A stretch of 63,999 bases of DNA, counting the filler, from Dirinaria sp. TL-2023a (taxonomy: Eukaryota): assembly GCA_051941275.1 (NCBI GenBank). It is 4 parts of 4 records of this genome, joined end to end, with 100 filler letters (N's around TTAATTAATTAA, not from the genome) between each part and the next. Parts side by side here need not be neighbours in the genome. Positions count along the whole stretch, not along the records: positions 48,807 to 63,999 come from JAVEBF010000559.1; 3 more parts are not named here. One strand, given 5' to 3'. Shown here one piece after another: positions 56,248-59,128 of this stretch. Numbering within the stretch: the stretch's first letter is position 1; every line of letters begins with the position of its first letter. The position numbers were made by a program, and so were the translations under genes. The notes under the pieces are model-generated. The model saw only the letters and a list, made by a program, of their open reading frames with translations, was not told where the DNA came from and did no database searches.

Positions 56248-59128
56248 ATGTCTAACAATCGACGCAGGCCAGACTCCAATGGGAGCAGTAGGAAGACTCT
56301 AGGCAGCTCAAAATCGCCAGAAGATCCTAGTATTAATCGAAAATCGCTGGGAGAGCCGCGAGACTCCCTGGTCAATCAATTTCGAGAGTCTAATCGGCGT
56401 TCAAGTTCCGGCACCGGCCGTAGAGTACCTGCCGATAGTTCGGATGATGTCAAAGAGCGGACTCGGAGCAACCTCCCATCGAAGACCGAATCCTCGCAGT
56501 CACCGACGAATAACAGTGGCGTTCTCTCTCGTTCCATAACTCGAAAGGCCCAGAACGACGGCACGGGACAGAAAGCACTGCACGGTTCCCCACACTTAAA
56601 TAATGTCGGCACTTGTAAGAGTACGTCAAATCTCTCAACTAGCTTAACGCTACGTTCAAAGCCGACTAGTAAGGAGAAAGCGGAGAAAGGGTCTTCTATG
56701 ATCTTAGCTCGCAACTTGAAGCAGATCATGCATAGCAACATCTACCTGATTTGCTACAAAGTCAAAGATAACTCTGGTCCCCTAGGAAGTTCTTCAAAGG
56801 CCTCAGCTCTCACACCTCAGGGGAATATCTTGAAAACTTTGACCCAAATGAATTTTGGACCGGATGTAGTCAGCGCAATAACAGACAATAAAGAGTGCCT
56901 AGTCATATTCTCACGATCTCAATCTGACATCACTGTGCCGGGCAGTAGCTCCATGTTCCTCAAAATCGCAAATCTTCAATGGCTCGATATACTGCATTTT
57001 ATCCATTGCGGAGAGCCTCTTAAGGAAGGAACCGATAAGCATGCAATCTCAAGTGTGCTCAAAATGCTCCTGGAGCAACGGCGTACGGTGGACGATTGCA
57101 ATGTTGTCAAGGCTCGATCATCCACGCTCCTGGGAATCCGCTCGCGAGGACATAGTCAAATAAACGGCCTCAAAGGTGGGAGTCGAAGCCTCGTTGACGT
57201 GATGGATGATTTTCTAGCAGCACATGGTGAGAATCTCCATGGCTTGGAGATTTATCTCAAAGGGCAATCTGTTCGAGTTGGCCAGAAGCAAGAACAAACC
57301 ACTGCAAGCGATACAAGCCCTCCAAAGACTATTGTTGGCTTAGCGCGGCCAGCAGATGCTCATGGCTCCAAACTTAACTCACCACCACAGGTCACAAAAT
57401 ATGGAGGCGGTAGTAATGACGTCAAATTCTATTTCAAATCCACGGCTAGTGATCGGTACAAATATGATACTGTGACCAAGTATTTCGAGGAAGAAAAGAA
57501 GCAAAAACTCTTGAGGCAAACTCTACCAGTCGTAAACATTGGCACGAGATCCAAGCCTGTCTACATTCCACCAGAACGCTGCACACTATTGGATATGCAC
57601 AGGAGCACTGCTTCAGAATTGAGCTTAGGTGACGTAGCAGACATCGTCAGCACAACTAACATCCCCGACTGGATCAACAATATTGACGGCAAAGGCGAGA
57701 TTAGATATTCCGGGCTGAAACTGCCTCTGGAAAGAGACTTGAAGGATTGCGAAGTTAGCATGACTGCAGAATCACTAATGGTTCCCCATCGGATCAGAGG
57801 CGAACCTCTTTTAGAGTATGCTAAGGGTAAAGAGGTTCGACCTGTTACCGGAGCGTGGAAAACGGAGTCGGTCACTCTGACTCCGAACACGAATCCCCTG
57901 AAGATGGCTGTACTATTAATTGGTGCGAGTCAGTGGACTGCAAGCGAACAAGTGACCAGCACAATCAATGCACTTCGCGACCGTATCAGTCATCACTGTC
58001 TTGTTCTTCACAAGTTCATCACACCGCATCGCTCCGTGGCCATAGAACCCCACGGAAAATTTGACAAGAATGCCCAGGATGCCGTTCAAAGCGAACTGAA
58101 ACGTCTGGCCCAAGAAGCTGATCTCATCCTGACGGTGCTATCGTCCGAAACGCAGCCTCTGTACGATTACATCAAGCGTCAATGCGACATCGAACGCGGG
58201 ATCCACAACATCTGCGTCACCGCTTCACGGTTCGCTAGCGACAGCAACGGCTACTTCCTCCACATCGCCCTGAAACTCAACCTTAAAACGGTGGCCAAAA
58301 CCAAGTCCTTAAACAAGAAACGAAGAAGACCATCAACCTTGACGAGATAATGATAGTAGGCATTAGCACCATCACACCTCCCAGGAAACCAGCCGACAGC
58401 GTTAAAGGCGTCGCTGCGATCGTAGCTTCATGCGACGGCACTTTGTCTCAATGGCCGTCCGACATTCGAATCCTAGACAAGAAGCCCCTCCATGAAGTAT
58501 TAGCCGATCTGGTAAACAACCGGCTTAAACTCTGGAAGGAAAAACGTCAATTCCCGCCCAAGAAAGTAATCATATACCACAAGGGCCTATCAGACAAAGC
58601 CTGCGCCGACGAGATCTCAAGCTTCCAAAAAGCAATCAAAGACGTCAAAATGACACTGATGGCGGTAAATAAAGATCATCATGCGCGGCTGGAACCTGCG
58701 CGCTCTTTCTGCTCTTCCTTATCGTCCTCAAGCGAGAGCAACGCCGCCATAATCATCCGGACGAAAAGCGAAGCTAAAACTGGGAATTCGTCCTACAAGG
58801 ACACAGCAGCAGCCCAGCATCGACCAAGAAAAAACAGCTCCTCACGCGCTACTCTATCCTGCACGACGACATCTTCTCAGCCGATAGCAGCAGGAGACAG
58901 GAGCTTGAAGATCTAACCCACGATATGTATTACCTTTCAGGATGCACGACTTCGGTTGTCGGTAGTACCTTACCGGTTCACTATGTCGGCTTGCTGTGTG
59001 AGCGGATTAGGTGCTACACAAAGCCTTGGTGGTATCCGAAGGGAAAGGCCGGAATCAAGAAGGAGGAGTTGAAAGAGGAGGATGTGAAGGTTAAAGAGGG
59101 CATACGGGACAGAATGTTCTATGTTTAA
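56248..59128 (+). pseudogene. Divergent Argonaute (PAZ-MID-PIWI) in three frames; pseudogene or homopolymer sequencing errors
   Basis: PAZ LPVVNIGTRSKPVYIPPERC; MID YDYIKRQCD...IALKLNLK/GGQNQ; PIWI MIVG, SQWP, WEFVLQGH, LEDLTHDMYYL...YVGLLCERIRCY. -1 shifts at 58285-58288 and 58776-58779. Confidence 0.85.

Follow-up and report, generated by a model that had tools for sequence, protein, structure and literature searches.

An Argonaute-like gene lies at positions 56248-59128 of the stretch of DNA from Dirinaria sp. TL-2023a studied here (assembly GCA_051941275.1; 63,999 bases with its spacers, referred to as the window). The locus raises two questions: what kind of Argonaute does this lichen fungus carry here, and is the gene still whole? 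We find that it belongs to a clade of Argonaute paralogues undescribed so far, which lacks the slicer residues and, as far as source names tell, is confined to lichen-forming Lecanoromycetes. The Dirinaria copy itself is short of one base at each of two places; we lean to the view that it is a very young pseudogene, able at best to give a fragment without a PIWI domain.

Reading frames and motifs of the Dirinaria gene

The gene covers 2881 bases of the + strand, from an ATG at 56248 to a TAA at 59126-28. No single uninterrupted frame connects the two; the sequence as given needs three. Three stop-free pieces of the + strand (56218-58350, 58287-58916 and 58778-59128) overlap end to end, and reading through them with an X at both breaks gives 959 positions and zero stops. 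A full-length Argonaute-like protein of ~960 codons is encoded across these three frames, with the following features.

56248..56688, +: leader; start codon and 147 residues rich in Ser/Arg/Asn/Lys, predicted to be disordered
56689..58287, +: frame-1 body with N, L1, PAZ, L2 and MID, from the Pfam PAZ match, alignment to the relatives P0002 and P0003 and to canonical Argonautes, and the fold of an orthologue
~57397-57615, +: PAZ core, Pfam PAZ match at residues 415-466 of the open reading frame (ORF) that starts at 56218
58162-58176, +: MID motif YDYIK
58270-58287, +: motif LKLNLK
58288..58289, +: shift site 1, where the two bases AC after AAA belong to no codon; one base short relative to relatives, which read K-[T/S/N/A/C]-GG
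58290..58778, +: frame-0 body, first half of PIWI, from the Pfam Piwi match (E 7.8e-13) and alignment columns
58365-67, +: Ser in place of catalytic Asp 1 (VGISTITPP), by alignment
58581-83, +: Lys in place of the Asp of YRDG (IYHKGLS), by alignment
58779..58780, +: shift site 2, where the two bases AC after AAA again belong to no codon; one base short relative to relatives, which read x-[T/S]-W-E/D-F
58781..59128, +: frame-2 body, second half of PIWI, with WEFVLQGH, ELEDLTHDMYYL, PVHYVG, C-terminal MFYV and the stop TAA
58988-90, +: Gly in place of Asp 4 (PVHYVGLL), by alignment

The DNA reads AAA-AC-GGT at 58285-58292 and AAA-AC-TGG at 58776-58783. Because intact relatives run through both places in one frame (K-x-GG and K/x-x-WEF), exactly one base is missing at each site. 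Introns do not account for the frame changes: intact relatives align without interruption over both places (LKLNLK-x-GGQNQVL and SEAK-x-WEFVLQ), and only two orphan bases are left per site. There are no introns anywhere in the Dirinaria copy, and its alignment has no exon-scale gaps. The first break stops translation 21 codons beyond LKLNLK, so that the sequence as assembled yields at most an N-to-MID fragment lacking PIWI. The final 115 codons, past both breaks, are still 65% identical to P0002. The public gene model for this locus, P0001 (868 aa, from the metagenome-assembled genome (MAG) of Dirinaria sp. TL-2023a), is 100% identical to the window product over its first 679 residues, crosses the first break through an invented intron and continues in frame 0 to DRSLKI. 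This annotation is wrong, and the true last 115 residues are missing from it.

Both the PIWI and the PAZ domain of the eukaryotic Argonaute (PAZ-PIWI) superfamily are present. Piwi (PF02171) matches the second piece with 48.8 bits (E 7.8e-13; cut-off 28.9) and the end of the first piece with 25.2 bits. PAZ scores 25.2 bits on the window copy, slightly under the gathering score of 28.8, and precomputed PF02170 matches exist for P0001-P0003 and most members of the family described below. VGISTITPP aligns to the canonical VG.DVTHP, IYHKGLS to YRDGVS and PVHYVGLL to PAYYADL, and QLLTRYSIL stands where canonical proteins have QGTARPAHY. At the positions of the catalytic tetrad, D-E-D-D/H in slicing Argonautes, the window copy has S, P (in the aligned Glu column), K and G. 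The Pro of the Glu-finger column lies at a loop position, and in some members a Glu is found three residues downstream (PLHE). Compared with canonical Argonautes, 15 residues are deleted following YRDGVSEGQ. The residues of the 5'-phosphate pocket (Tyr, Lys, Lys, Lys) and the C-terminal carboxylate motif are all there: the MID Tyr-Lys of YDYIK, the Lys-x3-Lys of LKLNLK and the C-terminal MFYV are retained, together with the PAZ core. The MID column that corresponds to Gln545 of human AGO2 holds V/I in 10 of 10 canonical fungal rows examined as well, so the change from Gln to Ile there does not count as a loss. Of the 147 leader residues, 31 are Ser and 28 are Lys or Arg, against 14 Asp or Glu, making the leader Ser-rich and net basic; relatives also bear leaders, of 100-200 residues.

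A clade of Argonautes from lichen fungi

A profile built from the window pieces and two relatives was searched against 1.84 billion representative proteins and returned 1993 matches at E ≤ 1e-3. Some 30 top clusters (at least 255 bits; 50% identity clusters) align from profile position ~10-80 onward; canonical Argonautes appear from ~266 bits and align only from profile position ~235. In a quick maximum-likelihood tree (LG+G4; 69 rows, root not inferred), one branch with an SH-aLRT of 100 and 0.76+0.77 changes per column separates the 25 family rows from the 44 canonical ones. The window copy does not group with the canonical fungal Argonautes. Its sister is P0002 (support 99), with which it shares 53% protein identity.

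All 13 members with a named source come from lichen fungi: Dirinaria, Heterodermia, Calogaya, two Polycauliona, two Gallowayella, Pyrenodesmia, two Xanthoria, Flavoplaca, Squamulea and Xanthomendoza. Dirinaria and Heterodermia are Caliciales by lineage look-up (Dirinaria: Caliciales, Lecanoromycetes), and the remaining named genera are ones we take to be Teloschistaceae. Outside the family, the nearest protein with a named source is an ordinary Piwi-domain protein of Pseudogymnoascus. A further six full-length, intact members (1000-1024 aa) share 70-89% identity with P0009. An alignment of 12 full-length members has 56 invariant columns and 55 nearly invariant ones, the invariant stretches including LP..N.GTR...Y.....C in PAZ-L2 and E.LT....L..TLP..Y..L in PIWI. 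In the published full-text literature that we searched (fungal, lichen and Lecanoromycetes Argonautes), the clade is not described.

Judged from the aligned columns, loss of the tetrad is common to the whole family. The first catalytic Asp is found in 18 of the 25 family rows that have the column, and no row out of 26 has a Glu at the finger column. Asp of YRDG is kept in a single row (1/26), the others having N (17), K (5) or S, R and T (one each). The fourth Asp is absent from all 20 rows, which have G (16), R (2) or E (2). By comparison, 10 of 10 canonical rows read D-E-D-D. The residues that hold the 5' end of a guide present the opposite picture: the MID Tyr and the MID Lys are each found in 26 of 27 family rows, the first Lys of LKxNxK in 27 of 27 and the second in 26 of 27, and complete family models end in MFY[IVL].

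Predicted fold

Fold checks were made on the sister protein P0002, the closest intact relative, and not on the broken window product. An AlphaFold model of P0002, computed with the family alignment, has a mean pLDDT of 76.5 and a pTM of 0.76; the first 52 residues are disordered, and the N-terminus that matches the Dirinaria leader has a pLDDT of ~25. Foldseek and VIA-align matched this model to human AGO1, AGO2, AGO3 and AGO4, to PIWI proteins and to the Thermus Argonaute. The top structural match is human AGO1 (4kxt; Z 35), in which residues 54-865 of the model align to residues 35-857 of the chain; the alignment to AGO1 and AGO2 runs through PAZ, and the P0002 model has the full N-L1-PAZ-L2-MID-PIWI architecture. 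Compared directly with solved structures, the family profile best matches the MID-PIWI fragment of Neurospora crassa QDE-2 (2yhb; 241 bits, profile 586-948), with human AGO2 at ~173 bits and the yeast KpAGO at 124 bits; Argonautes of the Protein Data Bank are matched down to an E of 2.6e-70.

A preliminary description of this DNA, made from the sequence alone, had proposed a divergent, lineage-specific Argonaute without slicer residues, with a retained guide-binding pocket and no visible introns. The Pfam matches and alignment columns bear out the first of these points, and the separate clade (SH-aLRT 100) the lineage-specific origin. The pocket is kept not only in Dirinaria but across the clade (26-27 of 27 rows), introns are missing from the window copy and its relatives alike, and the motifs quoted (GISTITPP, YHKGLS, eroded GTARP and YYAD, YDYIK, LKLNLK) are all present. 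The description was also right about a basic, disordered leader of ~150 aa. The N domain behind it, which the description took to be shortened, is not missing: the P0002 model aligns to AGO1 from model residue 54. The part as sensor, decoy or scaffold that the description put forward is conjecture.

Selection and lesions in relatives

DNA of family members was taken from a metagenome contig scan seeded with the 12 full-length members, and substitutions were counted by the Nei-Gojobori method. Two of the genes found, on contigs L003 and L004, are intronless, uninterrupted ORFs of 1024 and 1018 codons. Comparison of L004 with L003, which belong to another subclade than the branch of the window copy, gives a dN of 0.075, a dS of 0.165 and a dN/dS of 0.46 over 1018 codons (Fisher p 2.9e-9). 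Outside the leader, from codon 151 to the end, the ratio is 0.42; within it (codons 1-150) it is ~1, on 16 changes only. L004 against L001 gives 0.67, which is not significantly under 1 (p 0.15). The family is kept under moderate purifying selection, loosely, and is evolving fast.

Not every relative is intact. L001 (3626-6680) and L002 (3586-6640), contigs of two assemblies that are identical over the aligned gene, contain a P0009-type gene in which one base is inserted near codon 645; the restored frame has no stops and differs from the intact L004 at 69 positions, and the same split is visible in the cluster as proteins of 682 and 355 residues. On L007, an out-of-frame deletion of ~24 codons at ~780-840 removes the YxxG segment with the third catalytic position. 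The Calogaya model P0003 lacks ~35 residues from just before the position of the window's first break, the first catalytic motif among them, and the unnamed P0027 is a 662-residue form, seen on 8 contigs, that ends shortly past the YxxG motif; these two may be further lesions or annotation artefacts. The family has been broken and lost repeatedly. Independent disabling lesions in orthologues had been set beforehand as grounds for abandoning the preliminary description, and they are found (L001/L002 and L007), beside purifying selection on the intact copies. Its argument from reading frames fares better in part: there are zero stops, and selection is detectable in the family (dN/dS 0.46), but the two shifts cannot simply be corrected away, as in the assembled sequence they break the gene after MID.

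Could the whole family be a functionless relic, an old dead duplicate drifting in many lineages? This would suit the lost catalytic residues, the lesions in at least three lineages, a dN/dS of 0.46 that is high for a core RNA-interference protein and the L004-L001 ratio with its p of 0.15. We nevertheless consider it very improbable. Many members at 30-89% identity have uninterrupted ORFs of ~1000 codons, the 12 full-length members share their 56 invariant and 55 nearly invariant columns, dN/dS is significantly under 1 between L004 and L003, and the pocket residues persist in 26-27 of 27 rows.

State of the Dirinaria copy

We read the Dirinaria gene as a copy of this non-slicing lichen Argonaute that has suffered two single-base deletions and is, probably, a very young pseudogene or at best the source of a PIWI-less fragment. 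That both lesions are real rather than assembly errors is, in our judgement, also the better bet. If the gene is dead, it died recently. It keeps 72 of 77 family-conserved residues (columns conserved at 90% or more; rank 15 of 28), and its terminal branch is 0.43, against 0.38 for its sister. There is no stop in 958 codons, where 362 of the 8622 single-base changes would give one and 120.7 stops are expected per substitution per site; the absence of stops therefore bounds neutral drift at ~0.025.

Several observations weigh against this reading, in whole or in part. The window copy shows no sign of decay beyond the two breaks, an observation that agrees no less well with an intact gene. Both missing bases fall in runs of four A, within a hexamer, TAAAAC, that the 2881-base gene contains nowhere else (58284-58289 and 58775-58780), as a motif-specific artefact could; the coincidence may otherwise be chance (both are Lys-Thr codon pairs following a T) or a mutational hot spot. 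The dN/dS estimate comes from another subclade than that of the window copy. The taxonomic limit of the clade is drawn from 13 named proteins, mostly of a few MAG projects (suffixes TL-2023 and TBL-2021), most members being unnamed, and the apparent confinement to two orders may be a sampling effect. Loss of the Glu finger is a tentative call, made from the alignment. In the same alignment there are changes of the guide-contact type (KRH to KDH and QGTARP to xTLPxR, at positions that we take to be guide-backbone contacts in canonical Argonautes), and the Arg of the CERARCY column varies across the family. An ancestral role in binding guides without slicing, though likely, is read from residues only.

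The first two of these points bear on whether the Dirinaria gene is in fact whole and working, its missing bases having been lost in assembly or consensus calling within short A runs of a metagenome-assembled genome. Each break lacks a single base and adjoins AAAA, everything else about the gene speaks of constraint (72 of 77 conserved residues, a normal branch length, zero stops in 958 codons), and the 115 codons past both breaks retain their 65% identity to P0002. We rate this possibility as real but clearly the lesser one. Four A is a short run, and broken alleles of the family exist in nature (L001/L002 and L007). Elsewhere in the window, the genes that fall into several ORFs (Prp19, a mannosyltransferase, a PAF acetylhydrolase, a kinase, a TRP-like channel and Clr2) all leave room for introns, and the single junction checked at base level is a standard GTTAGT...CTGAC...CAG intron. 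Widespread indel error is therefore not indicated, though the test is weak, covering about six split genes and that one junction. For mycobiont genomes of related lichens, Dirinaria not among them, a 2023 paper used 2x151 bp Illumina reads (PMC9907504).

The hexamer also invites the thought of programmed -1 recoding at U-AAA-AC, giving a full-length protein: TAAAAC occurs exactly twice in the gene, both times at a shift site, and the same -1 step following AAA-ACN is needed at each. We find this scarcely credible, as P0002 and other members run through both places in one frame and the shift is not conserved. Moreover, U AAA ACN does not fit the X XXY YYZ pattern of a slippery heptamer, and the L001 lesion lies elsewhere and takes another form. 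A young, twice-deleted pseudogene remains our preferred reading.

Function and origin of the family

For the family as a whole, the analysis shows an Argonaute fold that lacks slicer residues yet conserves those for end binding, and intact members that are under purifying selection. Its ancestral function was likely that of a guide-binding, non-slicing Argonaute. The D-E-D-D tetrad would have been lost at or near the origin of the clade. The ancestral protein would have loaded a 5'-phosphorylated small RNA into the retained MID and PAZ pockets, then bound complementary RNA without cutting it, and then acted by occupancy or by recruiting partners through a conserved surface or the disordered basic leader. 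It would have worked beside the canonical slicing Argonaute that these fungi also carry.

It is also conceivable that the family functions without binding small RNAs, as a protein scaffold or with another ligand in a remodelled channel. The altered KRH and QGTARP positions, the 15 residues deleted following YRDGVSEGQ and the variable Arg near the C-terminus would all agree with this. We think it unlikely, because the MID Tyr/Lys/Lys/Lys, the aromatic core of PAZ (Y..YF and LP..N.GTR.KP.Y.PPE.C) and the MFY[IVL] end are among the best conserved features, which is hard to explain without an end-binding role. Guide binding without slicing thus stands as the likely ancestral activity.

The metagenome series that yielded family members also contains canonical Argonautes (L010, L011 and L020) with DVTHP, YRDGVS, YYAD and the full D-E-D-D; the family therefore adds a paralogue to the canonical gene and does not replace it. 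The coding sequence of these canonical genes is interrupted in the MID domain by an intron that contains stop codons. The family lacks this intron of its likely parent type, which possibly reflects a retrocopy at the family root, though the intron may also have been lost by other routes. At such an age neither a poly(A) trace nor target-site duplications would be likely to persist. The suggestion in the preliminary description that the gene is a retrocopy of a QDE-2-type gene therefore agrees with its lack of introns, provided that the event is placed at the root of the family and not in the Dirinaria genome; the parent may have been QDE-2-like or SMS-2-like.

Surroundings of the gene

The window consists of four contigs of 16181, 16174, 16151 and 15193 bases laid end to end, so that genes on different pieces are not neighbours. 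The spacers between them (N44-TTAATTAATTAA-N44, at 16182-16281, 32456-32555 and 48707-48806) have stops in all six frames. The genuine neighbourhood of the Argonaute gene is thus 48807-63999 only, 15,193 bases, in which the flanking genes are:

one side, -: trypsin-like gene
other side, +: RING-finger gene

This contig is ordinary genic DNA. The trypsin-like domain is encoded by an ORF at 52171-52776, upstream of a 512-residue Ala/Ser-rich ORF without a Pfam match (both within 50432-52776, -), and the two may be one gene with an intron. Near the contig end, at 63480-63640, there is a long A/T homopolymer that translates as runs of ~11 K or 10 F. None of the flanking ORFs of at least 100 aa around the Argonaute gene had a match in contigs L001 and L003-L007.

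Two genes on other contigs are worth recording. Two adjacent ORFs at 30435-32335 (+) match Clr2_transil as well as Clr2; cryptic loci regulator 2 acts in heterochromatin silencing, and the fungus therefore has parts of a chromatin-silencing system, unlinked to the Argonaute gene. A single ORF of 1208 residues at 22782-26405 (-) encodes a heavy-metal P-type ATPase with four HMA domains.

Comparison with known Argonautes

Lichen-forming fungi are not yet genetically manipulable, and their RNA-silencing machinery has hardly been studied. A conserved, non-slicing extra Argonaute, found by source names in lichen fungi only, is a concrete candidate for lineage-specific small-RNA biology in this group. 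In thalli and apothecia of Xanthoria parietina, an Argonaute and an RNA-dependent RNA polymerase are reported to be up-regulated (preprint 10.1101/2024.08.16.608140); the text names no gene identifier, and the Argonaute could be a member of the clade, to which P0175 of X. calcicola belongs. One may speculate that this lichen-specific, fast-evolving, non-slicing clade loads small RNAs in the symbiotic thallus or the fruiting bodies, either silencing by binding or serving as a sink for foreign small RNAs (from the photobiont, viruses or transposons), the gene coming and going between lineages in the manner of an arms race. We regard this more specific scenario as a long shot.

The nearest known counterparts are the QDE-2-type Argonautes of filamentous ascomycetes (N. 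crassa; 2yhb/2yha), which have the same domain order, the MID Tyr-Lys pair, LKxNxK.GG and an MFY[IVL] C-terminus. The lichen family differs from them in standing on a separate long branch, in having lost D-E-D-D, and in its deletions, both the 15 residues after YRDG and others in N/L1. Its leader is Ser-rich, whereas that of the canonical row P0005 is RGG-rich, and its genes are intronless, whereas the canonical gene from metagenome contigs has an intron.

Animals have well-known non-slicing Argonautes, among them human AGO1 and AGO4 and the WAGO clade of Caenorhabditis elegans. These too have the full fold and have kept the guide pockets while losing catalytic residues. The P0002 model matches such animal proteins structurally (AGO1, 4kxt, Z 35; AGO4, 6oon, Z 31.9), with an identity of only 20-22% over the aligned residues. 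The loss in the lichen family is independent of theirs and fungal, and we know of no GW182-type partner in these fungi. Given the animal paralogues, a non-slicing Argonaute is not surprising in principle; the interest for lichen biology lies in a clean case of independent loss of slicing within fungi, beside the animal examples.

The state of the Dirinaria copy also has a parallel. Aspergillus nidulans has truncated RNA-silencing genes, a case of a fungal Argonaute paralogue disabled in one lineage and kept in relatives. There it is a canonical gene that was truncated, whereas in Dirinaria two point deletions have probably struck a member of a clade that was already non-catalytic.

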